Shown one piece after another: positions 15,491 to 57,340 of a stretch of 64,000 nt of DNA (position 1 is the first letter of the stretch; each line of letters starts with the position of its first letter). The position numbers were made by a program, and so were the translations under genes. Under the pieces are notes generated by a model. That model was given only the letters and a program-made list of their open reading frames with translations, was not told the origin of the DNA and made no database searches. The stretch comes from Nitrosopumilus sp. (GTDB lineage: Archaea > Thermoproteota > Nitrososphaeria > Nitrososphaerales > Nitrosopumilaceae): assembly GCA_965249555.1 (NCBI GenBank), contig OZ252243.1:608001-672000 (forward strand). Reading direction: 5' to 3'.

Positions 15491-15500
15491 CTCATATCAC

Positions 15501-17597: not shown

Positions 17598-17600
17598 AAT

Positions 17601-19952: not shown

Positions 19953-20442
19953 GTGATGCGCCTCTATCAGTAATTATGATTTCACTATCTTGTGCAACAA
20001 ATGGCTTTACCTGAAGCTGGGCAGGAGTATAGATTAAACCCTCTTTGGAAAACGAAGATAGTTCATAGTCATTAGTCATGTATAGCGCATAAAATGGGCA
20101 TGCATCAACACAGAGACCACAGAAAACACATTTGCCATAATCAATCTGAGGCATGATTGCTTTTTTGTTGTGTTTATGCTCTTCTGGAACCTTTACCATT
20201 GCAATTGCTTCGGCAACCCCTTCACATGCAATGGAGCACAACTGACAGCCAGTACAGTGATCATGAAATAACAGATGGCGCCCCTTTAGTCCTGCAATTC
20301 CTACACCAGTTGATGGATCAAATTGATATCCATCTCCTACAAACTTTAGTTTCTCTTCAGGGTAGCGAAGTGTAAATCGCTTTACTGCAAGATGCTTAAC
20401 TCCCGAGTTTAATGCGCGGATAATACCTGTAGCAGTTCCCAT
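19945..20442 (-). CDS. nuoI: NADH-quinone oxidoreductase subunit I
   Basis: Two 4Fe-4S motifs (CTGCQLC, CVFCGLCVDACP). Confidence 0.95.
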   Translation of the reverse strand: MGTATGIIRALNSGVKHLAVKRFTLRYPEEKLKFVGDGYQFDPSTGVGIAGLKGRHLLFHDHCTGCQLCSIACEGVAEAIAMVKVPEEHKHNKKAIMPQIDYGKCVFCGLCVDACPFYALYMTNDYELSSFSKEGLIYTPAQLQVKPFVAQDSEIIITDRGASHG

Positions 20443-22940: not shown

Positions 22941-22942
22941 CT

Positions 22943-23539
22943 CTATCTTCCCTTTATTGCAAAGTCCTTTCGAAGTGGAGGCAAGTCTGCCCAATCTTCT
23001 GGCAAAAGTAATCTTCTGTTATCAGGATGGTTTTCAAAGAAAACACCAAACATTTCAAAAACTTCCCGTTCATGAAACTCTACACTGTAAAATATATCTC
23101 TAAGACTGGGAAGTTTTGTCGCGTCATTTCCAGGAATTGGATTTTCTTCTCGTTGGGCCCTAGTAGATAGGGCGATAATTTGTCTTGCTAATGAAGAATC
23201 AGAATAAGAGCCAATATGATAGACAACTTCAATCTCTTTGTCTTGCGGATAGTCTACGCCTGAAACAGATTCTACATGATCATAGTTTAATGCATCACGG
23301 ATGAACTCTGCAACGTCATGGATATTTTCCCGACTTGCACTAATTCCAATCCTATCTTCTTTAACAAATGTAACTGCAACTTTATCACCGAATTTTTCAG
23401 TTATCTTATCGGAAATTCCTTTCTCAAATGCAGGTAATTCTACTGATTCTTCTGGTTTTTTTGCTACGGGTTTAGGCGGAGGAGGTGTTTTTACTTCAGG
23501 TTTAGCATCAGCAGGAGGATTTTCAGTCTCGGCACTCAT
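22943..23539 (-). CDS. nuoC: NADH-quinone oxidoreductase subunit C
   Basis: EREVFEMFGVFFENHP..RRLLLP...PLRKDF motif. Confidence 0.95.
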   Translation of the reverse strand: MSAETENPPADAKPEVKTPPPPKPVAKKPEESVELPAFEKGISDKITEKFGDKVAVTFVKEDRIGISASRENIHDVAEFIRDALNYDHVESVSGVDYPQDKEIEVVYHIGSYSDSSLARQIIALSTRAQREENPIPGNDATKLPSLRDIFYSVEFHEREVFEMFGVFFENHPDNRRLLLPEDWADLPPLRKDFAIKGR

Positions 23540-24467: not shown

Positions 24468-24971
24468 TCCTCCTTTAATTCCAAATAATAATGTAGGTTC
24501 AAACTAAACAATACATTCATCCCATAAACCCTCTCTAATTCTGTTTGGAATTGTTTGTTCTATTAACTGCTTTTCTATGAATACAGTTTTCATGATACAA
24601 ATCATCTGTTTCATTTAGATAGGATGTGGTTCATATATTTATGATGATCTTAATTAATATGCAGTTAAATATCAAACCAATTTTATTTCCTTATTATCAT
24701 AGGAATTATTTGAATATGGGTGTTCCAATCAGATACAAAACACCAATAAGAAATGACACATAGAATCTTGCTAGGGATTTTTATTTGTTTTGTAATCATT
24801 CCAATGAACAAAACATAATGAGATCCTTTGCTTTCTCTATTTGAATAATTTGAGAAATCGGTTAAAAATGAGAATTGATTATGTCCATGTCTCAATTATC
24901 TAATATTATAACTACAGGATCACATATAAAAATTTTAAAGATTTATACCATACTGATTATGTTTGTATAAT

Positions 24972-25946
24972 ATGAAATTTTTAGATGAAGATAGATTATT
25001 AGCAGAAGTAGAGTTAGAACCAACACAGGGTTCACGTTTCCAACCAACAGGATTCCCATCATTAGGATCTGCAGAATTCACAACTGTGGATAACGAAGGC
25101 AAAAATATTAACTCACTTTTAGTAGAATCTACACAATCAATGGCAAACAGATTAGAAGTTGTTTGTATGAATGATACAAAAACTGAACTTGTAGAAACAC
25201 TTTCTGATTTACCTGTAATAAAATTAAATGATTCAAATGGGAATTTTATAACAAATTCCATACTTGAAGCACATCGCATGAATTCATCATACCTACTAAA
25301 AGGAGAAAAAGGTAAATTGCTTCATAAGATATCAACCGATCTAGACATAACGGATAACAAAACACATGTTCCAAATATTTCAAAATTTGCAGAATTTGTT
25401 TTCAAATATGATACAAACTCCATTTTACACGGATTGTTTTTAGCTAACTCTGACATAGCAGGTGGTAGATACAAACTTACTCGTTCTCTTTCCTCATTTA
25501 TTGAAGCATCAAATATCAAAGTCAGTGTAAGTGGAGGAGTAAAGCTTGATCACATTGATCCAAAAGGTGGTGAAGGTGGAGCAGAAAAAGGATACGGGCA
25601 CATACCATACTCTAGAACAGAATACACAGCAGAATCAATAAAGGCATACTTTAGTATAGATTTGTCACTTATTCGTTCATATGGTCTATCTAATGTTGCA
25701 AATGAATTTCTATTGACATTTGCAATGTGGAAGATTCAATCTTTTCTTAAAACAGGACTACGACTTCGCACTGCATGTGATCTGAAAGTAAAAAATACCT
25801 TGGCTGTAACGTATCCAAACAACGTAACCATTCCAAGTCTAGATGAATTAGATACAGACTTGAGAAACAGTATAAAAAAATGTAAAAATGAAGGACTTTT
25901 TTGTACGGATCCGATAATCGTAGAACATATAGAGACAAAAAAGTAA
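24972..25946 (+). CDS. csb1: Type I-G Cas7 (Csb1)
   Basis: RFQPTGFP, LLVESTQSMANRLE, LEAHR and LRLRTACDL motifs. Confidence 0.93.
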   Translation: MKFLDEDRLLAEVELEPTQGSRFQPTGFPSLGSAEFTTVDNEGKNINSLLVESTQSMANRLEVVCMNDTKTELVETLSDLPVIKLNDSNGNFITNSILEAHRMNSSYLLKGEKGKLLHKISTDLDITDNKTHVPNISKFAEFVFKYDTNSILHGLFLANSDIAGGRYKLTRSLSSFIEASNIKVSVSGGVKLDHIDPKGGEGGAEKGYGHIPYSRTEYTAESIKAYFSIDLSLIRSYGLSNVANEFLLTFAMWKIQSFLKTGLRLRTACDLKVKNTLAVTYPNNVTIPSLDELDTDLRNSIKKCKNEGLFCTDPIIVEHIETKK

Positions 25947-25956
25947 TGGAACCAAA

Positions 25957-27429
25957 TTGTTTTGTATTAGAATCTGTTTTTTAAGTGGAGCTTATCATGC
26001 AACTCCATGGGGTAAACATGTCAACGAAGGAATTCCAGAATGGCCGCCATCTAGTTGGCGTCTTCTGCGTGCAATCATAGCGTCATGGAAAAACACATGT
26101 TCAGATATAACAGAGGATACAGTATGGCCAATTTTGCAAAAATTAATACAAGAACCCCCAGAGTATTATCTTCCAGATGCAAGTGTCTCTCACACACGTC
26201 ATTACATGCCAACATACAATAAACCAACATTAATCATGAATACATTTGTAGTTACGGGAGACAGACCGTTAGACATAATATGGAAATATGTGGAATTAGA
26301 AAAAAATGAAATTGATACTCTTGAAAAAATTTTAAAGAATATGCATTATTTTGGACGTGCAGAGTCATGGTGTACTGCAGGCATACAAGTAAAACCAAAT
26401 GAACCAAATTGTAGCAAGTTTGATGAACAGAGCATCCCAAAAGATGTAGAGTTGGTAAGAGTTTTGGTTCCAAACAAAGGTGTAAAATTTAAAGATTTTT
26501 CAGAACAATTCAAAGAATTAAAAAAAAATAATACAGACAACATAAGTGTAACTACTCAACAATTACAAGACAAGGGATTCATAGATCCGCCAGGTGCAAG
26601 ATGGATTCGCTATACCAGACCAGTGAATTGTTTTGAAGCAAAGACAAACGATACAGTCACAACTGAAACATTATCAAAAGTAACACTGATTCGTTATGCA
26701 GTAGTAAATACAGTTAGGCCAGAAATCAAAGACACATTACGCGTCGGAGATTTAGCAAGAACCGCTTGCATGTCCAGATACGGTAAAAAGAAAAATGGCG
26801 GTACATCAAAAATATTTTCAGGTAAAGATGAAAATAAAAAGCCGTTAGAAGGTCACAAACATGCTTTTTATCTACCAACATACGAGACACAGAATAAAGA
26901 GATAGATCATATTACCATTTTTGCAAAAGGTGGGTTTAATGCAGATGAGTTAGATGTATTATTCTCGTTGAAGAGATTATACCGATATGATTTGATGGAC
27001 ATACGCCTGATCTTTGAAGATTGTGGTACGGTTGATAATTTTACAGACATTCCCATATTTAAAAAAGAGCGTGTTTGGGTATCTACCACGCCGATGGTTC
27101 TTTCTAGACACATCAAATATCGCGGAACGGGATCAAACAAACATATGGTTGATGGTCCCAAAGAACAAATTTCTAATGAAATAAAACAAAGATACGATTC
27201 TTCATATAAAATTAAAGACATACAAATAGATGAAAAACCAACAAACATGCATAATACAAATATCAAACCATTTGATTTTTTCAGATGGCGAAATCATGGA
27301 AGAGTGGGAAGTGATAAGACATACAAAGTTAGATTAGAGTTTGAAGAACCTGTAAAAGGACCAATTACATTGGGATATGGATCACATTTTGGATTGGGCA
27401 TGTTTGTACCAGAGGATTATCATGAATAA
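25957..27429 (+). CDS. csb2: Type I-G Cas5/Cas6 fusion (Csb2)
   Basis: YHATPW, EWPPSSWRLLRA and GPITLGYGSHFGLGMF motifs. Confidence 0.93.
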   Translation: MFCIRICFLSGAYHATPWGKHVNEGIPEWPPSSWRLLRAIIASWKNTCSDITEDTVWPILQKLIQEPPEYYLPDASVSHTRHYMPTYNKPTLIMNTFVVTGDRPLDIIWKYVELEKNEIDTLEKILKNMHYFGRAESWCTAGIQVKPNEPNCSKFDEQSIPKDVELVRVLVPNKGVKFKDFSEQFKELKKNNTDNISVTTQQLQDKGFIDPPGARWIRYTRPVNCFEAKTNDTVTTETLSKVTLIRYAVVNTVRPEIKDTLRVGDLARTACMSRYGKKKNGGTSKIFSGKDENKKPLEGHKHAFYLPTYETQNKEIDHITIFAKGGFNADELDVLFSLKRLYRYDLMDIRLIFEDCGTVDNFTDIPIFKKERVWVSTTPMVLSRHIKYRGTGSNKHMVDGPKEQISNEIKQRYDSSYKIKDIQIDEKPTNMHNTNIKPFDFFRWRNHGRVGSDKTYKVRLEFEEPVKGPITLGYGSHFGLGMFVPEDYHE

Positions 27430-29782
27430 TTCACCAAACTACAAAAACTTTGAAGCTTTTTTTAAAAAAGCTACAGGATATGATCCCTATCCTTATCAGA
27501 TCAAACTTGCAGAATCCCAAATACCAGCAGTGATTAATGTACCTACAGGTGCAGGTAAGACAGAAGCTGCAATATTATCATTATGGATGTGGAGAAGGGA
27601 ATTAAAAGATGAAAATACACCAACCAGATTAATTTATTGTCTTCCCATGAGAGTGTTAGTGGAGCAGACCGTTCAGAGAGTGAGGAAATGGATCGAAAAT
27701 TTAGGATTAGATGATGTAATTGGAGTAATATCGCTTATTGGAGGTAGTAAGTATGAAGAATTCCAAAAACACCCCAGTAAAAAATACATCATCATAGGCA
27801 CACAAGATATGCTTATTTCAAGTGCACTTAATCGAGCATATGGAAAGAGTCCATATGCATGGCCCGCCTTTTTTGGTCTGTTTAATAATGACTGTATGTG
27901 GATCATGGATGAAATACAGATTATGGAAAATGGTCTCCCAACATCACTACAATTAGATGTATTTCGTAAGCAATTTAAAACATATGGATCATCAAAGACA
28001 GTTTGGATGTCTGCCACAATAAACAAAGATTGGCTGAAAACGATAAATTTTGACGGCATAAAGGATTCAGAGATTTGTAGTCTGGGTAAAGAAGATAAAA
28101 ATCATGAAGAGTTAAAAAAGCGCAACGAGGCAGCAAAAACACTTCACACCGCAGACATTGAATTTAAAAAATATGATAGCAAAGTTGTAAAATATCTGTA
28201 CAGTCTACACAAAAAAGGAACAACTACTGCCATCATGGTAAACACGGTTAAAAGAGCGCAAGAACTGTATGATCTATTTAAAAAAGAAGGATTAGAATGC
28301 AAATTAATTCATTCTAGGTTTAGAGAGAAAGACAGATCCGAATTAAATAAATGGATAAATAACTTGGGCAAAGAGGAAGTCATCATATCAACACAGGTAC
28401 TAGAAGCAGGAGTAGATATTTCTGTTCGTACAATGATCACAGAGATTGCACCATGGGCAAACATGGTACAACGTTTTGGAAGATGCAATAGAACTGGGGA
28501 ATTAGACCAAGCTGACATATACTGGATAGATCTACCTGACAAATTATTTGCACCATATGAAGAAAAAGATATGGAACTTGCAAAAGAAAAATTAAAAGAG
28601 CTGGACAACAAGTCAGTATCTCCAATTAATCTTCCAGACATCACAGAACAGAAAATTTTTGATGTCATACTACGAAAAAGAGATTTGGTGGATCTGTTTG
28701 ACAATGCATCTGACATATCTGGGAATTATGTAGATGCCTCAAGATTTGTACGTACAATTAAGCAGCAATTAAATGTCGAAGTATTTTGGAGAGATGATCT
28801 AACAAATAATGAAGAAGTGCAGAAACAAAACAGACATGAACGCAATGAGATATGCAGTGTTCCAATATATGATCTAAAAGAATTTCTAAAAAAAGCAAAA
28901 GTGGCATACTCGTGGAATAATGTAGAAGAGAAATGGGAGAGGATTAAAGCAGGTAAAATTTTTCCCGGACAAGTAGTTATGATAGATAGCAAAAAAGGAG
29001 GATATTCAAAAACATATGGATGGAAAAAAGAAATTGGAGAAAAAGTAGAGGCATGCCAAACATCAGATAAAAAAAATGATTCAAATGGATATGATGCACA
29101 ATCAGAATCAAAGAATCCAGTAACGCTAGAAGAACACACCAGTCATGTATCAGAAGAGATGAAAACCATACTAGCCAAATTGAAAATCATAGATAAGGAC
29201 ATCAAAGATATCATGACTACTGCTGCCAGATATCATGACATTGGTAAGATACACAATGTATTTCAAGACACATTAAAAAAAGGAATCATAGATAATGAGA
29301 TTGCCAAAACCAAAATATGGGCCAAGAGCCAAAAAATGAGTAAACATTCCATACCAGGTTTCAGACATGAGGTAGTCAGTGCACTAGTATATCTTAAACA
29401 ACCAGGCATAACACAAGATAAAAAATTGCAGAATCTTGTGGCATATCTTATAGTTTCACATCATGGAAAAGTTAGACTCTCATTAAGAGATGTAATTAAG
29501 AAAAAATATGAGGTAAAAGACCAGAAATATTTGTTAGGAATAAATGTAAATGGTGAGACCATACCAGAATTCTCTAGCGATGCAGTATCTGTCAAGGCAA
29601 CTGAAATAGACGTTTTATTAGCAAAAATTGGTCAAAACAATACATCAGAACCATCATGGGTAGAAAGAGCATTGTCTTTACGTGATGAGTATGGACCATT
29701 CCGTCTTGGATATCTTGAATCGTTACTCAGAGCAGCAGACACACTTGCCAGTCAAAAAGAGAGTGAAAGAAGATATGACTAG
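27422..29782 (+). CDS. cas3: Type I-G Cas3 (helicase with C-terminal HD nuclease)
   Basis: PTGAGKT, DEIQ, SAT and QRFGRCNR, followed by HDIGK...HHG at the C-terminus. Confidence 0.95.
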   Translation: MNNSPNYKNFEAFFKKATGYDPYPYQIKLAESQIPAVINVPTGAGKTEAAILSLWMWRRELKDENTPTRLIYCLPMRVLVEQTVQRVRKWIENLGLDDVIGVISLIGGSKYEEFQKHPSKKYIIIGTQDMLISSALNRAYGKSPYAWPAFFGLFNNDCMWIMDEIQIMENGLPTSLQLDVFRKQFKTYGSSKTVWMSATINKDWLKTINFDGIKDSEICSLGKEDKNHEELKKRNEAAKTLHTADIEFKKYDSKVVKYLYSLHKKGTTTAIMVNTVKRAQELYDLFKKEGLECKLIHSRFREKDRSELNKWINNLGKEEVIISTQVLEAGVDISVRTMITEIAPWANMVQRFGRCNRTGELDQADIYWIDLPDKLFAPYEEKDMELAKEKLKELDNKSVSPINLPDITEQKIFDVILRKRDLVDLFDNASDISGNYVDASRFVRTIKQQLNVEVFWRDDLTNNEEVQKQNRHERNEICSVPIYDLKEFLKKAKVAYSWNNVEEKWERIKAGKIFPGQVVMIDSKKGGYSKTYGWKKEIGEKVEACQTSDKKNDSNGYDAQSESKNPVTLEEHTSHVSEEMKTILAKLKIIDKDIKDIMTTAARYHDIGKIHNVFQDTLKKGIIDNEIAKTKIWAKSQKMSKHSIPGFRHEVVSALVYLKQPGITQDKKLQNLVAYLIVSHHGKVRLSLRDVIKKKYEVKDQKYLLGINVNGETIPEFSSDAVSVKATEIDVLLAKIGQNNTSEPSWVERALSLRDEYGPFRLGYLESLLRAADTLASQKESERRYD

Positions 29783-31865
29783 GATAACACTTGAGTGCAC
29801 ATCAACGTTACTATCAGACTATTTCAAAGCTCTAGGCATATTTCGAATCATGACAGAACAAAGCGATTCTAATATTACAGCATATTGGAGATATGATAAA
29901 TTTGTTTTGGAAACAAGCATGAGTGAAGAAGAAATTTTGGAGTTTATTTTAAAACAATACAAGCCGACGCCTATAATCACACCGTGGAGTTATAACAAAT
30001 ACATAAAAACAAAAGCATCAATCAAAACAAAATTAGATGCAAAAGATGATAGGTTTGAATCATATCGTACGGTAATACAAGAAATAGACAAAATTAATGA
30101 AATGTTCTGCAAGATTTTAAATCTAAATGAAATGAAAAAAGATACCATAACTAAAAAAACAAAGTTGTTATTTTTGCAACTATGTAGAAATAATTTTCCA
30201 GATGAAGCATTATCTTGGCTAGATGTAAATGTTGTGCTAGATGGAACAGATGCAAAATTTGCACCAATTACAGGATCGGGTGGAAATGACGGTAATTTTG
30301 ATATGGCTGAAAACTTTGTCAAGTATCTAATAGAGATGTTTGATCATAATGAAGAATCCAAAAACTTGCTGAAAGAATCACTCTTTGGAGGATCAAGTAA
30401 ATTGGAAGAAACAACTATGATAGGTCACAACCCAGATGGGAATAGTAGTGCAACATCAGGACAAGGTTTTGAAGGTAGATCACTGTCAAACAAGTGGGAT
30501 TACATACTGATGTTAGAAGGAATAATCTCGTTTGCAGGAAATCTGGCTAGACGTCAATCTCAAGGGAAAGGGAAAGCAGTATTTCCATTTACAACAGATG
30601 GCTCACATGTTGGCTATGCAACTGCATCAGATGATGAAAGGGATATCAGAGGTGAGATATGGTTGCCAATATGGAATAATCCTGCCACGTATAGAGAGAT
30701 CGCACATATGTTTAGTGAAGGACGGGTTCAGCTTAATGGAAAACAAGCTGGGACAGGAACAGAGTTTGCACGTGCCATAGTTAGTTTAGGTGTGGAAAGA
30801 GGGATATCGGCATTTCAAAGATTCAGTATTGTGCAAAGAAAAGGAGACGCATATTATTACATCAATGCAGGTAAAATACACACCGCAGATGAATCTGCAG
30901 TTTATTTATTAAGTGAGTTGGATAATTGGTATAATCCAATTTATCAAAAGAGCCAATCAAAAGAGAGTCCAGTGTCGATAAAACGGCATGTCAGAAATTT
31001 TGAAAACGAAGTGATGGAATTTTGCAAATATAGAAAAAAAGAACATCTCTTAAAAATAATGATTCAGGTTGGAAAGATAGAAAAACAGACATCATTGAGC
31101 AAAGAATTAAACCCATTACAGGAACTATCTGCGCAGTGGCTTGATGAGAGCTATGACAATTCAGTGGAATTTAGACTGGCAGCATCCATTGCATCAATAA
31201 AATCAGATAACAACGTAGGAGGAATACGAGAAAACTTGGAAGATATACAATATGGAGAAAGATGGGAACATAAAAAAGAATCAACAACATCTGTGTGGAA
31301 AGAAAATGATGATCTATTAAGGAATATGGGTCGTGTATTGCAAAGACGTGGAATAGATGGTAAAATAAAATCATTGGATGCCATACCAATTAAGGGGATC
31401 ATACCTGCAAGAATGGAGGATATTATAAAATTTCTCAGAGGAGAAGTAGATATGAGAAAAATAAATGACCTAGTTCTTCCGTTATCCATGATATCAATAA
31501 ATCAAAAGACAGAATATCCTTGGAAATCTATGAATAATGATGATATTTACGATATGCCAATACCAGAAGCATATATCATAATGAAGTTGATATGTCCTCC
31601 AGATAGAGATGAAAAAATCCCATACGACACATCAATACTAAATATGTTACATGCAGGAAGATTTGATGATGCTTATGCAAAAACAGCATACATACTACAT
31701 TCACACATGCGATCACCATTAAAATATTCAAAAATAAACGGCATGCCTAAAATATTGATTTCAGATATCATTAAAAAAAATATAATGGCGTCACTATTGT
31801 TTCCAATTTCAAAACATGATAGACAGAAAATGTTGCGTATGGTTACAGTTCAACAAAATTCATAG
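29775..31865 (+). CDS. csx17: Type I-G Cas8 (Csx17/Cas8g)
   Basis: YFKALG, YKPTPIITPW, GSGGNDG and GEIWLPIW motifs. Confidence 0.9.
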   Translation: MTRITLECTSTLLSDYFKALGIFRIMTEQSDSNITAYWRYDKFVLETSMSEEEILEFILKQYKPTPIITPWSYNKYIKTKASIKTKLDAKDDRFESYRTVIQEIDKINEMFCKILNLNEMKKDTITKKTKLLFLQLCRNNFPDEALSWLDVNVVLDGTDAKFAPITGSGGNDGNFDMAENFVKYLIEMFDHNEESKNLLKESLFGGSSKLEETTMIGHNPDGNSSATSGQGFEGRSLSNKWDYILMLEGIISFAGNLARRQSQGKGKAVFPFTTDGSHVGYATASDDERDIRGEIWLPIWNNPATYREIAHMFSEGRVQLNGKQAGTGTEFARAIVSLGVERGISAFQRFSIVQRKGDAYYYINAGKIHTADESAVYLLSELDNWYNPIYQKSQSKESPVSIKRHVRNFENEVMEFCKYRKKEHLLKIMIQVGKIEKQTSLSKELNPLQELSAQWLDESYDNSVEFRLAASIASIKSDNNVGGIRENLEDIQYGERWEHKKESTTSVWKENDDLLRNMGRVLQRRGIDGKIKSLDAIPIKGIIPARMEDIIKFLRGEVDMRKINDLVLPLSMISINQKTEYPWKSMNNDDIYDMPIPEAYIIMKLICPPDRDEKIPYDTSILNMLHAGRFDDAYAKTAYILHSHMRSPLKYSKINGMPKILISDIIKKNIMASLLFPISKHDRQKMLRMVTVQQNS

Positions 31866-31945
31866 ACAGAAATAGAGTTACAATATAAAGATTCAACATT
31901 TTTACAAGTTGATGAATTTTATAGATTTACAGACTTGTTAAGCAA

Positions 31946-34900
31946 TCTTCAATGAAGCCATAATTTTTTGTTATGGCAATCAGTGTAGATACTTTGTTCC
32001 ACATATCAACTCTACTAGGCTTCAAGAGAGTTGTAACTTTATCGTTACAGAAATTTGGTGGTCATGTGCCATATCAGAACGCCCTGATGTTATGCTTCAA
32101 TGGGGCTGTAACTTTATCGTTACAGAAATTTGAGAATAAATCCAGTAATAAATGGATTACCAGTTCCAGCGCTTCAATGGGGCTGTAACTTTATCGTTAC
32201 AGAAATTTTATGCGCTATGTGTTATGTTTGTCATACTCATGTAGCTTCAATGGGGCTGTAACTTTATCGTTACAGAAATTTCACAAATTGTAATACAATA
32301 AGGGTACTATAACGGTTGCTTCAATGGGGCTGTAACTTTATCGTTACAGAAATTTTATGCGCTATGTGTTATGTTTGTCATACTCATGTAGCTTCAATGG
32401 GGCTGTAACTTTATCGTTACAGAAATCACTCGGATGTTGTTTTCCCTGCACGTCTGATATACAGAGCTTCAATGGGGCTGTAACTTTACCGTTACAGAAA
32501 TTGGCTCCAGCTTTGGTAATCTCAAGAATGATCTCGCCACGCTTCAATGGGGCTGTAACTTTATCGTTACAGAAATCACTCGGATGTTGTTTTCCCTGCA
32601 CGTCTGATATACAGAGCTTCAATGGGGCTGTAACTTTACCGTTACAGAAATTGGCTCCAGCTTTGGTAATCTCAAGAATGATCTCGCCACGCTTCAATGG
32701 GGCTGTAACTTTATCGTTACAGAAATGGCTTAATCAAAGATGTTATCTCAATGTCCGTATATTATCAACTTCAATGGGGCTGTAACTTTATCGTTACAGA
32801 AATATAAAGAGGAAGCTGAGGGTTTCACAATCGATTTTCTAGCTTCAATGGGGCTGTAACTTTATCGTTACAGAAATTTTGTGAGGTTTGAAGTTTGAAG
32901 TGGACAGTTTCCCAAGCTTCAATGGGGCTGTAACTTTATCGTTACAGAAATTCTGTTATCTTTGATTTTTAGTTTGATTTTATCTTCTTCAGCTTCAATG
33001 GGGCTGTAACTTTATCGTTACAGAAATCTAAAAATGTTTTGACTGCTGTCGGCGTGTAAGCCGGGCTTCAATGGGGCTGTAACTTTATCGTTACAGAAAT
33101 TTCCATCAGCTCCAGTTTCATCTTTACCAAATGCTTTGCTTCAATGGGGCTGTAACTTTATCGTTACAGAAATTTCTCCAGCCGGATATTGATAACCGTG
33201 AGCCTTCATGCTTCAATGGGGCTGTAACTTTATCGTTACAGAAATTTCGAAAAGCCAATTAGTAAACTTGGTACGACTCACCTGCTTCAATGGGGCTGTA
33301 ACTTTATCGTTACAGAAATTGTAAGTTACAGGATAACGCAATAAATCTATGCTCAGCTTCAATGGGGCTGTAACTTTATCGTTACAGAAATACTTTATCA
33401 CGATTACGGTTTAGATAGTCAAGGACAAGCTTCAATGGGGCTGTAACTTTATCGTTACAGAAATAAATGAATCAGCGAATAGTTCGACATCAAATTTCTT
33501 GCTTCAATGGGGCTGTAACTTTATCGTTACAGAAATCTGATGATAACATCTTTGCTGAATTTCATGTTCATGCTGCTTCAATGGGGCTGTAACTTTATCG
33601 TTACAGAAATCATGAGTGATTTGTTGTCCTCGAGTTGGTCCTCCATGTGCTTCAATGGGGCTGTAACTTTATCGTTACAGAAATGATACAACTTGAAAAT
33701 ATTGCAAAAGCAGAAGCACGCTTCAATGGGGCTGTAACTTTATCGTTACAGAAATTGGAAAATCAAGCTTCAAAATTAATGGCTACAACATCGCTTCAAT
33801 GGGGCTGTAACTTTATCGTTACAGAAATTTCCCTATGGACCTTCCTTTGCAGGTCCTTGTATTTCTCAGCTTCAATGGGGCTGTAACTTTATCGTTACAG
33901 AAATGCGGCAGCCAATCCCGACGGCTTGGCTTCCATCATAGACGCTTCAATGGGGCTGTAACTTTATCGTTACAGAAATGTAGTAATTGCATTCATCTGC
34001 ATTTGACTTGCACCACCGCTTCAATGGGGCTGTAACTTTATCGTTACAGAAATTTCGGCTTTGAAAATTGCTAATGCTTTAGATTTTTTGCTTCAATGGG
34101 GCTGTAACTTTATCGTTACAGAAATCTTGATGTCTCAAACAGCAAGAGTTCAAACTAGATTAGCTTCAATGGGGCTGTAACTTTATCGTTACAGAAATAT
34201 AGAACGGTTATCAGGTCAAAGAGCGTTAAAAGTAGCTTCAATGGGGCTGTAACTTTATCGTTACAGAAATTTGGATAGCGATTGGATAGCTATGACAAAG
34301 CAACTGGAAGCTTCAATGGGGCTGTAACTTTATCGTTACAGAAATCTGCATCAGTAAGAAATAGTAGATTGTCTACAGCCGTTGCTTCAATGGGGCTGTA
34401 ACTTTATCGTTACAGAAATGATGGATCAGGCTATACCAGGGGTATTGGGTCAGGGATGCTTCAATGGGGCTGTAACTTTATCGTTACAGAAATTTAGTGT
34501 TACTGAAAATTCTAGGTTAGGATGGTCCAAAGCTTCAATGGGGCTGTAACTTTATCGTTACAGAAATTTTGAAAAAGAAACTTTGAAAGAAGACAAAGAG
34601 AGAGCGCTTCAATGGGGCTGTAACTTTATCGTTACAGAAATCTTAGGTTGTAGAACTCAAAGAACAGCTGACATTATCGCTTCAATGGGGCTGTAACTTT
34701 ATCGTTACAGAAATGTCAGAATTAGTTTGAGTAAAAACACTACCTTTTCTCGCTTCAATGGGGCTGTAACTTTATCGTTACAGAAATTTAGCATACAAGA
34801 GATAGCCTCCGATACCAACCGCTCCTGGCTTCAATGGGGCTGTAACTTTATCGTTACAGAAATTTCTCAAAATGAAAAAAATTGTTAACAATGTCCAAGC

Positions 34901-35538
34901 TTCAATGGGGCTGTAACTTTATCGTTACAGAAATTTTGAGCCTTTCAATTACACTAGTTAAAATTTTAGATGCTTCAATGGGGCTGTAACTTTATCGTTA
35001 CAGAAATCACCAAGTCGTGCAATACCTCCACCAGGTCCTCCTGGCTTCAATGGGGCTGTAACTTTATCGTTACAGAAATTTGATTGTTTCGACAAGATTC
35101 CAACTGACACCTAGATCCTGGAGGCTTCAATGGGGCTGTAACTTTATCGTTACAGAAATTAGGATATCAGCGCCACGACTTAGGCCCGCTGCTAAATTTG
35201 TGCTTCAATGGGGCTGTAACTTTATCGTTACAGAAATATGGTATACAAGCAACATATCCGTACGAAGTGTGTATTGTCTACGCTTCAATGGGGCTGTAAC
35301 TTTATCGTTACAGAAATATCGAATTTAGAAAACTTGTCGCAATTAGAACATTTATGCTTCAATGGGGCTGTAACTTTATCGTTACAGAAATTTTTATAGA
35401 GCTATAAAGCCTAATATAAACCCTAAATGCTTCAATGGGGCTGTAACTTTATCGTTACAGAAATTTCTGTTTGTTCTTTTTTAGCCTTGTCAAGACTACT
35501 TTGCTTCAATGGGGCTGTAACTTTATCGTTACAGAAAT
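31946..35538 (-). CRISPR. Type I-G array: 49 repeats (two degenerate at the left, trailer end) and 48 spacers of 35-44 nt
   Basis: 36-bp repeat ATTTCTGTAACGATAAAGTTACAGCCCCATTGAAGC (minus strand) with CTGTAAC/GTTACAG stem; orientation from the ATTGAAGC 3' end, degenerate left repeats and AT-rich leader next to cas2. Confidence 0.98.
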
Positions 35539-35690
35539 GGGGTCATTTTCTCTAAAACCGTTATCATGTTTTTGTTTCTAGTTGTTTTTCAATTGTTATC
35601 TGACGATTCAAGCAAATCATAGACATTGCTGTGGTATGATATTTTTTTCATATATATTATATCTGCGAGAGTATTATCATACTTACCTTG
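35539..35690 (-). promoter_or_regulatory. CRISPR leader
   Basis: AT-rich non-coding stretch between cas2 and the first perfect repeat, with a TATA-like element. Confidence 0.7.
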
Positions 35691-35691
35691 A

Positions 35692-35801
35692 CTTGTAACC
35701 CATCGCATTTTCTTTGCCCTATATCACTTGCGCAAAGCTCTTGATAGGGCTTCTTGTCAGGCATCTTGTAACCCATCGCATTTTCTTTGCCCTATATCAC
35801 T
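35692..35801. repeat. 37-bp direct duplication flanking a 36-nt insert
   Basis: CTTGTAACCCATCGCATTTTCTTTGCCCTATATCACT at 35692-35728 and 35765-35801. Confidence 0.95.
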
Positions 35802-36079
35802 ACGGATCTCTCCCTTTCCGTATCCATTTGTGCCCCTATTACTGATATTCTTTCTTTACTTTTATTTAAGGAGCCAAGATTAATTATCAAAATTTTATCT
35901 TCAACCATATTCATTATATCCTCTAACTCTTCTTTCATAATTATTATTTCCTTGTAGTTAAGATCACACATAAACACAGAATATTGTACAGGTTCCCCAT
36001 ACCCCTTCATCTTTTTATGTATCTGTATCAATCGTTGCGGATCATGTATATCGTAACATACAAAGTATCTATTGCGCAA
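35792..36079 (-). CDS. cas2: Cas2
   Basis: YFVCYDIHDP.RL...GYGEPVQYSVF; TTG start assumed. Confidence 0.93.
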   Translation of the reverse strand: MRNRYFVCYDIHDPQRLIQIHKKMKGYGEPVQYSVFMCDLNYKEIIIMKEELEDIMNMVEDKILIINLGSLNKSKERISVIGAQMDTERERSVVI

Positions 36080-36083
36080 ACCT

Positions 36084-37769
36084 TCATCTTGTCCTAAATG
36101 CAGGATATGTTGGAATCTCTCCAAGAATATGTCTGGCAAGTAATCTTGTTTGAGTTTCCATTATGCGTTTATAGCTGGCAGCATAACCCAAAAGTGGATG
36201 AATAACAACAGAATCCATACGTCTCTCATATGCAGTTATCACTGTAGAACGCCCTCTATTGGTAAGGTTTGTTCCAAAGTCGGTCTTTATCAAATCTGAT
36301 TCATTGATTTCACCGTTATTGATAAGCGTAATACATGTAGAATCTGCTACAATTGGTCTGAATTCCTCGATCATATCAAGTGCAAGTGCGGGTTTCCCAT
36401 ATTTTGGCATATGAAGAAATCCCAGATAGGGATCAAGACCTACTCTACTAACTGTAATCATTGCATTCCTTGTCAACATTGCATATAGAAATGACATAAT
36501 TGCATTAACTGGATCCTTTGGAGGTCTTCTGTTTCTTCCATTAAAATCAAAAGCCGTTGATTCAGATTTTATCATGCCATTAAATTCTGAAAAATATATG
36601 CGTGCAGCCATTCCCTCTATTCCAAGAAGAGTATCATATTGTTTTACAGTACATGCACGTTGTGCAAGTATGTTCATCTTGTGTATCTTATCTATAGGGG
36701 GAGATTTGTGGTTTCTACGTAGCATTGTCATGCAATTTTTTATTTTTCCAAACACCATCTGACGAGCTATCCCAATGGATGCATTTTTAACATCATATTT
36801 TTTATGCTGTTTAATTCGCAGTTCTATATTTTTATGTGAAAGTCCTGTAGTAATACCCGTAAACCATCCTCCATATGTCATGTAACAGATAGGAATATTT
36901 CGCTTGCTTAACTCCCTTATTGCTTGTGTTGTGATCTGGATATTTCCAAATAGTGTAATTTCTGAAATGTCTATCAATCTAATCTTCTTTATTATTGTAT
37001 CTTTTAATTTTACATGAATGCAATCATTTGATTTTGTAATATGTGCTCCCTGTTCCTGTATGTATACTGGTATGGTGTCATTTCTTATTGGATACATTCT
37101 GCGTATCTGGTCCTTGTTTATTTGATGAGTCTCATCTGATAACAAATTGACTTCATCAGGTAGACATATTCCCACAAGGGAACATCTTGGACATTTCGGA
37201 CTGTCAACCAACGGAGCAGGTATTGTATATGACTTTGCCATTTCTTTCATCTCTTTGATCATCTGTAATGTTTTTTTTACTGTTTGATCATCTAGATTAA
37301 TTTCTATTCTTTGCTTTGATGCAATATAATAAACAAAACCCTTTGTACATGTGTATCCATTTGCACGTAGTAAAAGTCCTTGAGCACATACTTGTATGAT
37401 GTGATCATCATATGTTCTGTTAGGAGTATTGGGAGTGCTGCCACGTTTGTATTCTATTGGTGTTGCAACGTTTCCATCTAATTCAAGTAGATCTGTTTTA
37501 GATATCAATCCAAGCTCTGTATCAGACAAAGTAACTGATCTGGCATGAATCTTTTCTACTGTGATATTATCTTTATCGGTCTTTTGTTCAAGCATTTTTC
37601 CTCCTGACGGTTTGTCTACATTTCTATGCTGATATTTGCCGTCTATCACATCTTTGTTGGATTCAAATTCCCCTTGAACCCATTCCATATATGCAAGTCG
37701 TTTACAATATACGAATTGTGTTAGCATTCTTACTGGTATAAGATTTGAATTAACACTTGATGTACTCAT
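36084..37769 (-). CDS. cas1: Cas4-Cas1 fusion
   Basis: YCKR, PIEYKRG and CPRCSLVGIC (Cas4); GIEG.AAR.YF, RNRRPPKDPVNA and DMIEEFRP (Cas1). Confidence 0.95.
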   Translation of the reverse strand: MSTSSVNSNLIPVRMLTQFVYCKRLAYMEWVQGEFESNKDVIDGKYQHRNVDKPSGGKMLEQKTDKDNITVEKIHARSVTLSDTELGLISKTDLLELDGNVATPIEYKRGSTPNTPNRTYDDHIIQVCAQGLLLRANGYTCTKGFVYYIASKQRIEINLDDQTVKKTLQMIKEMKEMAKSYTIPAPLVDSPKCPRCSLVGICLPDEVNLLSDETHQINKDQIRRMYPIRNDTIPVYIQEQGAHITKSNDCIHVKLKDTIIKKIRLIDISEITLFGNIQITTQAIRELSKRNIPICYMTYGGWFTGITTGLSHKNIELRIKQHKKYDVKNASIGIARQMVFGKIKNCMTMLRRNHKSPPIDKIHKMNILAQRACTVKQYDTLLGIEGMAARIYFSEFNGMIKSESTAFDFNGRNRRPPKDPVNAIMSFLYAMLTRNAMITVSRVGLDPYLGFLHMPKYGKPALALDMIEEFRPIVADSTCITLINNGEINESDLIKTDFGTNLTNRGRSTVITAYERRMDSVVIHPLLGYAASYKRIMETQTRLLARHILGEIPTYPAFRTR

Positions 37770-38112: not shown

Positions 38113-38637
38113 TTATACAAACTTTCTAGCCTTCATTCTCTTGATTTTTTCTTGCAACAAAATACATCCTTGGATGAGAGTTTCAGGTCTAGGCGGACAG
38201 CCAGGAACATAGACATCGACTGGAATCACTCCGTCAATTCCCGGAAGTACATTGTATGAATCAAAATACAACCCCCCAGTAATTGCACAAGCTCCCATAG
38301 CAATTACATACTTTGGTTCTGGCATTTGATCATAAACTAGTCTGAGACGTGGTGCCATTTTTCTTGTAATAGTTCCTTGAACAACAATTAGATCACATTG
38401 TCTAAGTGATCCAAATGCCTCAATGATACCAAATCTTTCAACATCATATCTAGGACTTGATGCTGCACCAAATTCAACACTGCAGCAAGCCGTTTCAATG
38501 TGGACAGGCCAGAGTGACCAAATTCTACCCCAATTGATGGCATAGCCCAATGGTTTGCCGATTGCCCGCTCTAAAATGTCCCCTAGCTTTCCTACAAAGA
38601 CATTTGCATTTTCTGGCGTTACTAAATCATTAAGCAA
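38113..38637 (-). CDS. nuoB: NADH-quinone oxidoreductase subunit B
   Basis: TACCSVE, MGACAITGG and VPGCPPRPE motifs. Confidence 0.96.
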   Translation of the reverse strand: MLNDLVTPENANVFVGKLGDILERAIGKPLGYAINWGRIWSLWPVHIETACCSVEFGAASSPRYDVERFGIIEAFGSLRQCDLIVVQGTITRKMAPRLRLVYDQMPEPKYVIAMGACAITGGLYFDSYNVLPGIDGVIPVDVYVPGCPPRPETLIQGCILLQEKIKRMKARKFV

Positions 38638-38676
38638 TCTTATCCCCTATCTCATAAATGCAATTTATATAAAAAA

Positions 38677-39051
38677 CTACCATATTCTTCGCCTCCCAGA
38701 CTGATACAATGCAAATGCCATTGCGCCAAACATTATAGCTAAAAATCCCATCATTGGCAAAGTTGCACTCTTTGGAAGTTCCAAAAGGGCACTTCCCCAG
38801 GCATACAGGAAGATTGCCATGACATCAAAGACTACAAACATCAGAATGTAGGGATAATACTGCATCATAAAGTGAGTCCGGCCTTCGCCTGACGGGACTT
38901 GACCGCATTCCATTGGTAAAAATTTCACAGGATTGTTTATTTTTCGAGGAGAAATCATCCTAGAAATAACTAAAGCCGGAGCCATAGCTGCTACGGCAAA
39001 TCCAAACATCAATACAACAATACTGTAATTGCCCGCTAATTCTCCGACCAA
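38677..39051 (-). CDS. nuoA: NADH-quinone oxidoreductase subunit A
   Basis: PMECGQ and YYPYILMFVVFDV motifs. Confidence 0.95.
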   Translation of the reverse strand: MVGELAGNYSIVVLMFGFAVAAMAPALVISRMISPRKINNPVKFLPMECGQVPSGEGRTHFMMQYYPYILMFVVFDVMAIFLYAWGSALLELPKSATLPMMGFLAIMFGAMAFALYQSGRRRIW

Positions 39052-40910: not shown

Positions 40911-41925
40911 ATGCCTACCTTATTAACAACCAGAGATCGAATTAGTTTTGAGGATAAAATACAGACAAAAGCAGTCAATACGCAGAAAACATCCCAGTCA
41001 TCAGTAAGAAACTTTGAGAGATTTTGCAAGGAAAAGTATGACAAATCAATGGAGGAGATAATATCAGAATATCACAAAGTTGAGATGGATTTAATCTATG
41101 AATCACTGCAAGAATGGATAAACTGGAACAATACAAAGGTTCATTCAAACAGCATTCCTACACTGTTTTCATATCTCAAAACATACCTAAGATATCACAA
41201 GATAAGAATTACAAAAGAGGATGTGGTAAAACAGCTGAGTTTACCTCACAAGGTCAAAGAGGAGAAATATCCATTGACAAAAGAGGAGATCAGAAGCCGA
41301 TGATTTTTTGTTTGATATTGAACATGATTACCTGGGAGAAATATCCATTGACAAAAGAGGAGATCAGAAGGATACTGCAAGTATGCAATAAGAATAACAC
41401 GATCAAGATTCTGGCACAGTTATCAAGTGATATGAGAAAAGGGGAATTGCTCCAGCTGAAAAAAAGAGATCTTGGACAAAAAAGAATCATGGTAAATATT
41501 CCTGCAAGTATTACAAAGACAAAAAGATCAAGGGTGACTTTTTTTAGCAGAGAGATAATACCTTTACTGATGCCGATTCTTAGAAGGCTCTGGCTGATGA
41601 TGACAGAGTGTTTTTTCGTGGAAAGCTAAATCCTGCAAACATAAGCAATCACTACCAGCTGATTCTGACAGAGTATCTAAAGAGGACAGGGCTTGATCAA
41701 AAATATGAATCCGGACGTCACAAGATAACAACACACAGCTTTAGGGCATTTTTTATCACAAAGGTGTCTCTTCATGATCCAAACCTTGCAAAGTACTTTG
41801 CAGGACAGGAACAAACAAGAGACCTGCTGATGTATGACATATTGACAGCAGATGAAAAGTGAGAAAACTATATCAAATTTGAGCCTGATTTGTTGATATG
41901 GGATTCAAATAAAAGCGTAAGGTAA
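40911..41925 (+). pseudogene. Tyrosine recombinase/integrase pseudogene
   Basis: MRKGELLQL, TKTKRSR and HSFRAFF motifs in three frames; disrupted by a 74-nt duplication-insertion and further lesions. Confidence 0.88.
41261..41370. repeat. Exact 36-bp direct duplication flanking a 38-nt insert
   Basis: GGAGAAATATCCATTGACAAAAGAGGAGATCAGAAG at 41261-41296 and 41335-41370. Confidence 0.95.
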
Positions 41926-46819: not shown

Positions 46820-48307
46820 CTAATTCAACCATTCCCCACCTCTAATTCCCCATACATTATAATTTGCTTGAGCCAAATCTCCTGCTTCATTTAGTGTTGT
46901 TGGACCTATTGCTCCTATGTAATTCTCTGCAATTCCTGGGAGTGCAGCTTTAATCACACTAACATCACTGCTTTGGGTTTCAAGCATTGCCAGTCCAATT
47001 AACCACACGGCATCATATGAAGAATGCACAAATACGTTAGGAACCATGCCAAGTACTTCAGTTATATGAGATTGCACTTTGTTATATTTTGGGTTTTCTG
47101 TAATTGCAAACGCAACTGATGTAAATTGAACATTAGTTGAAAATTCTAGTGCTATTGGATCATCAATCAGACTGTGGTCTTTTGTGGTAGCACCTGGTCC
47201 GAACCATCTTACATCATGTAATATGTCATATTCGGATGCTGATTGAGTAAACTGTAGAATTTCCGCAAATCCCAAAAACATGACACCAACTTTGTCTGCT
47301 CCATATTCATCAACATGTTCTTGTACTTGTTGAGCTAATAGGGAAACTGATACAGAAAATTCTGGAGTCTCCGGATTGTAGCGAATAGGTTCGCCTACTA
47401 TTCCCCCTCTTTTGATAAATGAATCAGTTGTAGACTTACTTAGACCATCACCCCATGTGTCTCCCCTATATACTGGAACCAATACATCGATTCCTTCATG
47501 TTTCATTAGCTTTGCAAGTGCAGGTCCTTGCTTAGAGTCATCTGGAATTAGACGAAATACACTATCATTTGTAATAGCTAATGCAGGTGCAGTAGAACAA
47601 CAGCTAACTAACAACATGTTGTTAGAGTCCGAATAACCTTTCATGTGGCTAACATTGGAACTAGTTTCAGGTCCTATTACAATTCCAATTCCTTTGGCAT
47701 AAAGTGATGTTAGTTTTTCTAGTGCAGTTACTGGATTAGTTGCAGAATCTTCTGTAATCATTTTGAGATGCCATGGGGCATCAATGTCTTGCAAATGTTT
47801 GTTAAACTCGGATACCCCAAACTTTGAGCCCTCATTGCTTCCTAGTCCATGAGTTGACCAATCACCTGTTAGTGGAACGATTGCTCCGATGGTTACTTCT
47901 CCGGACAGTCCTGCTGTTTCTTCCATCATTGGATCTTTCATCATATCATCCTCCATCATTGGATCTTTCATCATATCATCCTCCATCATTGGATCTTTCA
48001 TCATATCATCCTCCATCATTGGATCTTTCATCATATCATCCTCCATCATTGGATCTTTCATCATATCATCCTCCATCATTGGATCTTTCATCATATCATC
48101 CTCCATCATTGGATCTTTCATCATATCATCCTCCATCATTGGATCTTTCATCATATCATCCTCCATCATTGGATCTTTCATCATATCATCCTCCATCATT
48201 GTTTCATCTACATCCATAACTTCTGTATCCGTACCTAATACTCCATAAGCAACACCGATAATAATTAGAATAACTACAACACCAATTCCTATTTGTTTAG
48301 TACTCAT
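46820..48307 (-). CDS. ABC substrate-binding protein (LivJ-like) with Met-rich repeat; probable 3' frameshift
   Basis: N-terminal anchor; IGAIVPLTG, IGPETSS and FRLIPDD motifs. Confidence 0.85.
   Translation of the reverse strand: MSTKQIGIGVVVILIIIGVAYGVLGTDTEVMDVDETMMEDDMMKDPMMEDDMMKDPMMEDDMMKDPMMEDDMMKDPMMEDDMMKDPMMEDDMMKDPMMEDDMMKDPMMEDDMMKDPMMEDDMMKDPMMEETAGLSGEVTIGAIVPLTGDWSTHGLGSNEGSKFGVSEFNKHLQDIDAPWHLKMITEDSATNPVTALEKLTSLYAKGIGIVIGPETSSNVSHMKGYSDSNNMLLVSCCSTAPALAITNDSVFRLIPDDSKQGPALAKLMKHEGIDVLVPVYRGDTWGDGLSKSTTDSFIKRGGIVGEPIRYNPETPEFSVSVSLLAQQVQEHVDEYGADKVGVMFLGFAEILQFTQSASEYDILHDVRWFGPGATTKDHSLIDDPIALEFSTNVQFTSVAFAITENPKYNKVQSHITEVLGMVPNVFVHSSYDAVWLIGLAMLETQSSDVSVIKAALPGIAENYIGAIGPTTLNEAGDLAQANYNVWGIRGGEWLN
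47922..48200 (-). repeat. Perfect 30-bp tandem repeat, 9 copies, encoding MMEDDMMKDP
   Basis: Unit CTCCATCATTGGATCTTTCATCATATCATC. Confidence 0.97.
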
Positions 48308-52467: not shown

Positions 52468-52535
52468 AGATTTTAACGTGCATAACGAATGCACGTTAAG
52501 ATTTTAACGTGCATAACGAATGCACGTTAAGATTT
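52468..52535. repeat. Tandem 31-bp duplication of an 11-5-11 palindrome
   Basis: TTAACGTGCAT-AACGA-ATGCACGTTAA twice. Confidence 0.9.
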
Positions 52536-56506: not shown

Positions 56507-56645
56507 CTCTCATACGAAACCGTCTCCAACCCTACTGCGACTAAGTGTGTTTTGCTGAATCACGACATCTGGGATATGCATCTTATACTTTCGTTGTGTC
56601 AGTTCATGATTTTGTATACGATACACTTTCAGAGTTTGTTAGTAT
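56507..56645 (-). mobile_element. Solo copy of the IS110 3' end
   Basis: Similar to 39103-39251, e.g. GCATCTTATACTTTCGTTGTGTCAGTTCATGATTTTGT. Confidence 0.85.
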
Positions 56646-56918
56646 GATGCATTTAGATAAAAAAAGTCCGTATCCACATCAGCCCCTGATTACCCATCAC
56701 GGATGGTCCAAGGGATTCAAATACGGCAATATACCATAGTATAAGATAACATAAGATAGTATCGGTTTGCGATATTTATTCTCTAAAGGCAATTATTCAT
56801 GTTTGTGCCTAAATTATATCTTCAATAACATGTGATTTTGTCAAACCTATAAAATTAACGATCATGTGGAATCTTGTGTGAAAGAAAAATGAAAAGAATA
56901 GTAAAAATGGCATGCTAC

Positions 56919-57025
56919 AACTATGAGCAGGCAACAACACGGAAGAAAGATGCCTAAATCAAGTTCAAGTTCTAGTTACCGTTCATCTAGTAACTATGAC
57001 CAGGCAACAACACGGAAGAAAGGTG
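56919..57025. repeat. 34-bp imperfect direct duplication with 73-bp period
   Basis: AACTATGA(G/C)CAGGCAACAACACGGAAGAAAG(A/G)TG at 56919 and 56992. Confidence 0.88.
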
Positions 57026-57135
57026 AGATAATCAGGTGCACAAAATGCCGGTTCTGTGAAGTTATCGTGACCTGAAATATGGATCTTCTAAGGATTCTGC
57101 TAACTAATTTTTATAACTGGTTATTCAATCAAAAA

Positions 57136-57243
57136 CATGAATCTCTGCTTACAGAGCCGCCCCATTGAAGAATTAACTATGTGTGTTACAAAATACAAAA
57201 ATTAGAAATTTCTGAAAGTTTCTACTTTCAGCCCCATTACCGA
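57136..57243 (+). CRISPR. Mini-array (one spacer) related to the type I-G repeat
   Basis: ...GCCCCATTGAAGA, 36-nt spacer, then ATTTCTGAAAGTTTCTACTTTCAGCCCCATT with two compensatory stem pairs. Confidence 0.8.
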
Positions 57244-57247
57244 ACAT

Positions 57248-57340
57248 ACATACTTAATGAATCTATCATAACAAGGATTGAAACTTTGTAGTGAGTTGTA
57301 GAGAATCCAATTTGGAAATCCACTAAAACAAGGATATAAC
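57248..57340 (+). CRISPR. Second mini-array, from a different (...ACAAGGATTGAAAC) repeat family
   Basis: ATCTATCATAACAAGGATTGAAAC, ~20-nt spacer, ATCCACTAAAACAAGGATATAAC. Confidence 0.7.

Follow-up and report, generated by a model that had tools for sequence, protein, structure and literature searches.

Off-target spacer integration as the probable origin of repeat-flanked insertions outside the CRISPR arrays of a Nitrosopumilus genome

In a stretch of 64,000 nucleotides (nt) from a Nitrosopumilus genome (positions 608,001 to 672,000 of the forward strand of contig OZ252243.1, assembly GCA_965249555.1; hereafter the window), a gene for a tyrosine recombinase of the phage-integrase family is broken by a 38-nt insert that stands between two identical 36-nt copies of the gene's own coding sequence. 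Sequence comparison leads us to conclude that this scar very probably arose when a spacer was integrated off target, as a full-site event, by the genome's own type I-G Cas4g/Cas1g-Cas2, the adaptation proteins of a CRISPR system encoded in the same window. The scar is an insertion relative to homologous genes, its duplication is 36 nt long, a complete adaptation module that retains its catalytic residues lies 3.5 kb away, and about 14 more units of the same build are found in the genome. Coordinates refer to the window unless marked as genome positions, which are those of the single contig (C1) of the source genome (G000; 2.23 Mb, 34% G+C); an archaeal small-subunit ribosomal RNA model was matched in it end to end with 1456 bits.

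A repeat-length duplication around a spacer-sized insert

The interrupted gene and the parts of the scar are as follows.
40911 to 41862, + strand: pseudogene of a tyrosine recombinase (phage-integrase family), split into three frame pieces and recognised from its open reading frames (ORFs), PF00589, a paralogue and homologues in the relatives G017 and G009
41261 to 41296, unstranded: target-site duplication, left copy, 36 nt of integrase coding sequence (exact repeat; single in the G017 and G009 homologues)
41297 to 41334, unstranded: spacer-sized insert, 38 nt (missing from the same homologues)
41335 to 41370, unstranded: target-site duplication, right copy, 36 nt (exact repeat; single in the same homologues)

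The two 36-mers (GGAGAAATATCCATTGACAAAAGAGGAGATCAGAAG) are 100% identical, start 74 nt apart and enclose the insert CCGATGATTTTTTGTTTGATATTGAACATGATTACCTG, exactly as the original prediction had described them; the whole unit measures 110 nt. The duplication has the length of the resident CRISPR repeat (36 nt), and the insert that of the median array spacer (38 nt, with a range of 35-44 nt in the array). By our own arithmetic from base composition, which takes a per-base match probability of ~0.27 at 34% G+C, an exact 36-mer pair at such spacing would be expected by chance ~1e-12 times per genome. A 98-nt contig (41267-41364) that runs from the left copy across the insert into the right copy was recovered with 0 differences among the Logan contigs, which break at the 36-mer, of three out of four runs (X1, X2 and X5, from three studies), one of which may be the assembly's own source. 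In X2, the sole run with appreciable depth, the contig carrying the insert had about the same depth as its flanks.

The uninterrupted state of this site is seen both in relatives and within the genome itself. In the G017 and G009 homologues, which are 73% identical, the 36-mer occurs once, the 38 nt are absent, and the two BLAST pieces of the alignment overlap on the 36-mer. An integrase paralogue at genome 1485181-1485942 (PF00589, 51.9 bits) likewise runs unbroken across the junction, with a single 36-mer and no insert.

The consequences for the reading frame are those of a 74-nt insertion. The ORF at 40911-41303 (frame 0) stops within the insert and the protein resumes in the ORF at 41114-41629 (frame 2), a change of frame that follows from the shift of 74 modulo 3, and the joined reading KEEKYPLTKEEIRRILQV agrees with the uninterrupted homologues of G017 and G009. 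To that extent the proposal that removal of 74 nt restores the frame was correct, but a second frameshift lies near 41590-41600, where frame 2 runs on to a stop at 41629 and homology to the G017 ORF goes on in frame 1 from ~41596. Since there are two lesions, taking out the scar alone leaves the gene broken, and the reading frame of 40911-41862 is not intact. One fragment matches PF00589 narrowly above the cut-off (27.3 versus 27.1 bits), and the score is 28.1 bits when the gene is read through five internal stops.

A complete type I-G system in the same window

The genes, arrays and leader of the system are distributed as follows.
24963 to 31865, + strand: interference genes Cas7g/Csb1, Csb2, Cas3g and Cas8g1/Csx17 (NCBIfam TIGR02570, TIGR02165, TIGR02621 and TIGR04113, all above cut-offs)
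32018 to 35538, - strand: type I-G CRISPR array, whose 48 repeats measure 36 nt and whose 47 spacers measure 35-44 nt (median 38)
35539 to 35791, - strand: leader, which lies between cas2 and the first repeat and can be aligned with those of the relatives G359 and G429
35792 to 36139, - strand: Cas2 (PF09827, TIGR01573)
36084 to 37769, - strand: Cas4g/Cas1g fusion, the proposed integrase (NF049935; Pfam Cas_Cas1 and Cas_Cas4; PDB 7mi4)
57136 to 57243, + strand: relic mini-array, a pair of degenerate type I-G-like repeats at a distance of 72 nt, with the handle motif CCCCATTGAAG

The type I-G gene set is complete, with Cas7g/Csb1, Csb2, Cas3g, Cas8g1/Csx17, Cas4g/Cas1g and Cas2 all above curated cut-offs. 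Both cas2 and the Cas4g/Cas1g gene lie ~3.5 kb to the left of the integrase scar, and the array and interference genes lie farther left. The fusion protein scores 731 bits against NF049935 (cut-off 560) and aligns end to end with chain A of PDB 7mi4 (E = 3e-160), an alignment in which D87, K102 and E380 are conserved; in the available text of PMC6547450, mutation of these three residues abolished or deranged adaptation by the Geobacter enzyme. Judged by its genes, then, the genome carries a cognate adaptation module that is apparently active.

The degenerate repeat at 32018 places the leader on the right-hand side of the main array, whose repeat, read on the - strand, ends in ATTGAAGC. Inside the array a 109-nt block is found again at +147 and a 150-nt block again at +150 (both exact; 32171-32426 and 32391-32690), so that spacer pairs are present twice. 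A search for degenerate repeats by mismatch count was non-discriminating (8 chance hits at 14 or fewer mismatches in a shuffled genome), and the 11-mer handle motif CCCCATTGAAG was used instead. Beyond the main array it occurs only in the relic repeats at 57136-57243 and in a lone array of two exact type I-G repeats and one spacer at genome 1884690-1884798, which is remote from the cas locus and lacks a recognisable leader. Beside the relic repeats, ~28 nt at 57260-57288 are 93-97% identical to the array repeat (period ~72) of the relatives G015 and G425, and this piece resembles a lone repeat of a third kind.

A second CRISPR region spans genome 1607942-1616351. It comprises an array with three copies of a different 36-nt repeat (1607942-1608118), a large array whose repeats are 30 nt long and whose period is ~66 (1609447-1613726), and a Cas1 that stands alone (1615398-1616351, 26% identical). 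As for the surroundings of the type I-G locus, cas genes and array (24963-37769) lie between nuoA-nuoB (38113-39051, - strand) and nuoC-D-H-I-J...N (14006-23539, - strand), and from this gene order the complex I operon appears to be split by the CRISPR-Cas island.

Fifteen scars share one geometry

The whole 2.23-Mb genome was scanned for direct-repeat pairs of length (L) at least 26 nt, with mismatches permitted and periods between 40 and 120 nt; both CRISPR arrays were left out, as were tandem arrays. The scan found 28 non-tandem pairs, 17 of them at periods of 69-75 nt and 11 at periods of 40-68 or 76-120 nt. Two members of the first group are not scars, namely genome 1884690, which is the two-repeat array of the true CRISPR repeat, and genome 2053378, a palindromic element conserved in the relative G010. 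After both were dropped, 15 of 26 pairs fall at periods 69-75, which are 7 of the 81 possible periods, where ~2.2 would be expected (p = 3.4e-10).

In these 15 scars ordinary local sequence is duplicated over 30-39 nt (median 36) around unrelated inserts, which all differ from one another and have no common termini. The repeat copies are identical in eight scars and differ by one to two mismatches or more in the other seven, and the varying mismatch between copies indicates that the scars are of different ages. At genome 1219275 both boundaries are unambiguous, giving a 35-nt insert and a 36-nt duplication. The original prediction had expected a genome-wide scan for direct repeats to give a sharp peak, and had described three scars in the window; the peak was obtained, and beside the integrase scar the two others are present as described.
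35692 to 35801, unstranded: scar 1, a 37-nt exact duplication with a 36-nt insert, period 73 (an exact 73-nt gap in G359 and G429)
56919 to 57040, unstranded: scar 3, a 31-nt core with one mismatch, period 73, an older unit ~110 nt upstream of the two relic I-G-like repeats

Empty sites could be demonstrated for 7 of the 15 scars, two through relatives and five through paralogous copies. Scar 1 appears as its gap in leaders of G359 and G429 that are otherwise alignable, whereas the scars at genome positions 16547, 19053, 512988, 1219275 and 1268457 lie in multi-copy sequence, and the BLAST pieces of the other copies overlap by 28-41 nt, mostly 34-37, among the pairs listed. Scar 3 stands outside this set, as no relative covered its site. 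Taken together, the period peak, the median duplication of 36 nt and the seven empty sites support the suggestion that Cas4/1-Cas2 acts as an insertional mutagen with a length ruler.

Several other candidates were not counted. The locus at genome 1607942-1608118 is the three-repeat array mentioned above. At genome 82220-82340 a scar-like exact duplication of 34 nt encloses 53 nt, which is too long for a spacer and comes from a repeated element (94-96% match to two other loci). A 29-nt duplication of period 64 at genome 1840225-1840317 fits the 30-nt-repeat system, and its 35-nt insert matches a dispersed element of ~22 copies (91-97% identity over 32-33 nt). The unit at 1476220 (L 23) is under the threshold. 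As to the excluded palindromic element, boxes of ~28-31 nt (TTTC.AAA.TCGA.TTTAGAAA) stand 70 nt apart at genome 2053378-2053475 and at G010:C1:607129-607229, conserved between the two species, and may be a protein-binding or origin-type element.

Many inserts are copies of the genome's own DNA

We found that 7 of the 15 inserts are copies of distant loci in the same genome, four of them at 100% over 32-36 nt, including one derived from a tRNA-His gene, and three at 86-97%. No such match in its own genome exists for any of the 47 array spacers. One would expect this difference if self-spacers kill from within a working array but do no harm elsewhere. The scars had been proposed to form a genome-wide record of foreign DNA, a description that does not hold when at least seven of 15 inserts are self DNA. 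Four of the seven self sources lie at 965-1100 kb of the genome, near the maximum of cumulative GC skew (~1.03 Mb), a clustering seen post hoc with p ~0.015 for the tightest three. The cumulative skew itself has its minimum at ~2 kb and its maximum at ~1.025 Mb, followed by a plateau to ~1.45 Mb.

Where the scars lie

All six scars that fall within intact long ORFs have a period divisible by 3 (p = 0.0014). Their host ORFs encode 6567 amino acids (two scars), 5960, 766, 299 and 244 amino acids, and the other scars are intergenic or in broken genes. From this in-frame bias it follows that absence from core genes reflects survival and not targeting. The statement that scars all lie outside core genes is therefore better taken as a selection effect, and it needs the qualification that the final 10 nt of cas2, including the stop, lie within the right copy of scar 1.

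No motif emerged from the 15 scar sites, and the earlier view that there is little sequence specificity was roughly right. The sites are slightly more like leader plus repeat than random sites are (242 matches versus 212.8 +/- 10.1, p = 0.005, with the orientation picked per site both in the data and in the null). However, the orientation given by this similarity conflicted with that given by the protospacer-adjacent motif (PAM) at two of three sites, and for that reason no site motif is claimed. The view also has to accommodate a regional tendency, in that 4 of the 15 scars have one of the three handle-bearing loci within 6 kb (binomial p = 1.2e-4, for a 6-kb limit set after the data were seen and for regions poor in essential genes). 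Two of these four are inside leaders, where scar 1 precedes the first repeat of the live array by 153 nt and scar 3 stands ~110 nt upstream of the relic repeats; the scar at genome 1882077 is 2.6 kb from the mini-array at 1884690.

Observations that weigh against the proposal

A number of results count against off-target integration by this system. The first concerns the 38-nt insert of the integrase scar, for which no source was found in its own genome (best match 17 nt); a 33-mer of it had 0 matches in viral_contigs, a 26-mer had 0 matches in metagenome_contigs and 0 in genome_contigs, and the full insert at up to three mismatches was found in 0 of 400 family genomes. The protospacer search suggested earlier thus gave sources for the seven self-derived inserts and not for this one. 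Even among the self sources, TTN, the PAM expected for type I-G, stands upstream of only 3 of 6 near-exact ones in one orientation, which falls short of significance (p = 0.13; insert 16547, whose source is 86% identical, does not enter this count). For comparison, the available text of PMC6547450 gives TTN at about half of the unique new spacers in the Geobacter system. Finally, scar periods are ~2 nt shorter than array periods (median 72 versus 74, p = 0.0013).

The distribution among relatives is also less than clear-cut. Full-length Cas4/1 was found in 6 of the 60 genomes of the genus searched, and scar-like units were sought in 0.4-0.8 Mb of each of four related partial genomes, a limited sample.
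G359: 78%-identical Cas4/1 and 132 repeats; 400 kb scanned; one clean scar-like unit and one doubtful
G010: no Cas1 and no such repeat found; 800 kb scanned; 0 scar-like units
G002: no Cas1 and no such repeat found; 800 kb scanned; one scar-like unit
G018: no Cas1 found, an orphan array of five repeats of the same family; 800 kb scanned; 4-6 units

The units of G002 and G018 occur in genomes where no Cas1 was found, and those of G018 are several. The earlier reasoning had turned in part on whether such duplications are equally common in CRISPR-less relatives, and the answer is graded and without a clean split (0, 1 and 4-6 units per 800 kb in G010, G002 and G018). Nevertheless, the clean unit of G359 and the lack of any in G010 speak for the proposal, G010 and G002 together have one unit in 1.6 Mb versus 10.8 predicted from the density in G000 (Poisson p = 2.5e-4), and in four of the six G018 units the repeat copies carry one to two mismatches. 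These counts fit a picture in which integration goes with the presence of the system while the scars persist after its loss. We also note that G+C content within this one genus is unusually wide (0.31 in G010, 0.34 in G000, 0.52 in G002 and 0.54 in G018).

Alternative explanations

Integration might instead have been performed by the second adaptation module, the stand-alone Cas1 beside the 30-nt-repeat array. Both that Cas1 and its array (period ~66 nt) do exist in the genome. A 30-nt repeat, however, leads one to expect 30-nt duplications and periods of ~64-67, whereas the integrase scar has 36 and 74, and just one unit in the genome, 1840225 (L 29, period 64), fits. We consider this explanation very unlikely.

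Slightly less likely again is an event unrelated to CRISPR, either a repair or replication accident with filler DNA or a tiny mobile element that makes a 36-bp target duplication. In its favour is the one unit of similar geometry in G002, a genome that yielded no Cas1 and no member of this repeat family. But neither accident nor element explains why the inserts all differ and lack common termini, or why both the duplication length and the period peak sharply at the values of the resident array. No repair pathway or transposon is known to give a fixed 36-bp duplication with inserts of 32-39 nt.

The repeat-spacer-repeat geometry would also be that of a small genuine CRISPR array, two repeats and one spacer, making a guide RNA, and a true two-repeat array is indeed present at genome 1884690. 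At the integrase locus, however, the "repeat" is coding sequence that is single copy in the homologues, agrees with the CRISPR repeat at 11 of 36 positions (hand alignment), and has neither a hairpin nor the CCCCATTGAAG handle; on these grounds a functional mini-array is excluded for practical purposes, and we regard this reading as highly improbable. An assembly artefact, lastly, in favour of which nothing was found, has a negligible chance of being the explanation given the identical junction in three runs from three studies and the even depth across insert and flanks in X2.

A proposed route and its precedents

We therefore return to off-target integration by Cas4g/Cas1g-Cas2, which we infer to have catalysed the event, with selection then filtering which scars survived. 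A spacer-sized DNA fragment of ~38 nt would have entered the integrase gene, where two staggered transesterifications would join it to opposite strands 36 bp apart, a spacing equal to the distance that the complex would normally measure across the 36-bp repeat. Gap repair would then duplicate the 36 bp between the cuts. The outcome would be the geometry of repeat, spacer and repeat in which the "repeat" is ordinary coding sequence, together with the 74-nt frame shift and the stop codon in the insert.

The phenomenon has precedents, which we cite from the portions of the sources available. Over-expressed Cas1-Cas2 of the Escherichia coli type I-E system is reported to integrate off target and generate neo-CRISPR loci (Nivala, Shipman and Church 2018, Nat Microbiol 3:310, seen through 10.1101/148544, PMC7054753, PMC9456107 and PMC11788318). 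In the accessible text of PMC9456107, IHF-like motifs guide the E. coli off-target sites, and what can be read of 10.1101/148544 offers circumstantial evidence for natural cases in two other species. The Nitrosopumilus scars resemble the E. coli products, as far as these are described there, in having a spacer-sized insert in non-array DNA with a repeat-length target duplication, products that can seed new arrays. They differ in coming from a native archaeal type I-G system with a Cas4/Cas1 fusion, instead of over-expression in a bacterium, and in numbering ~15 fixed events in one wild genome, with at least seven self-derived inserts and an in-frame survival filter.

According to the available part of PMC6698737, Pyrococcus furiosus Cas1-Cas2 performs full-site integration in vitro at non-CRISPR sites with repeat-length spacing, and these products share with ours the paired joins on opposite strands, as proposed here, and sites that weakly resemble the repeat. 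That work, so far as its text is accessible, used plasmids in vitro, a 30-bp ruler and an enzyme with no Cas4 fusion, whereas here we see repaired, inherited genomic products of a 36-bp ruler. The Geobacter sulfurreducens type I-U/I-G Cas4/1-Cas2 (PMC6547450, PDB 7mi4) is the same fused enzyme, with spacers of ~36 bp in the portion available; its TTN PAM stands upstream of three of the six self sources here, a proportion without statistical significance. The term "off-target" does not occur in its text. Ectopic spacer acquisition away from the leader-proximal repeat is described for arrays of Streptococcus thermophilus and S. mutans in the accessible text of PMC7999890, PMC5338259 and PMC8265633. 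Those events, as presented there, took place within the array at genuine internal repeats, whereas the targets here are unrelated sequences.

A literature search that covered few subscription journals and no supplements turned up no account of such scars in type I-G systems or in archaeal genomes. E. coli over-expression has already shown the phenomenon, and so dense a natural record in an archaeal I-G genome looks new. The record is noteworthy for how densely the events occur, how many of the inserts derive from self DNA, the in-frame filter and the connection with leaders. A wild genome with ~15 fixed events offers a view of the capture and insertion steps of adaptation that is free of selection for interference or array function. 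It also puts a figure on the mutagenic cost of an active integrase, counted in broken genes and in in-frame insertions into others, and the scars are natural intermediates for the birth of new arrays.

Although more tentative, and in our estimate slightly less likely than not, a broader possibility is that in this archaeal lineage type I-G Cas4/1-Cas2 writes a second, unselected archive of spacer capture into ordinary chromosomal DNA. Such an archive would consist mostly of self DNA and be started by preference in cis near leaders, and this would provide a birth route of new arrays; it would add in-frame insertions of 23-25 residues to giant surface proteins, and it would outlive the cas genes, as in G018. 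If this is true, scars could serve to date the former activity of CRISPR in genomes from which the system has meanwhile disappeared.

Other repeats in the window

Three further repeated sequences were observed in the window. An element of ~140 nt at 56507-56646 has at least nine further copies (84-86% identity) in the genome, is present in G359 and G353, and may be a miniature inverted-repeat transposable element. A 31-nt tandem duplication at 52468-52529 is exact and holds a hairpin, and a perfect 30-nt tandem repeat of 9.3 copies occupies 47922-48201 within an ORF of 495 amino acids.

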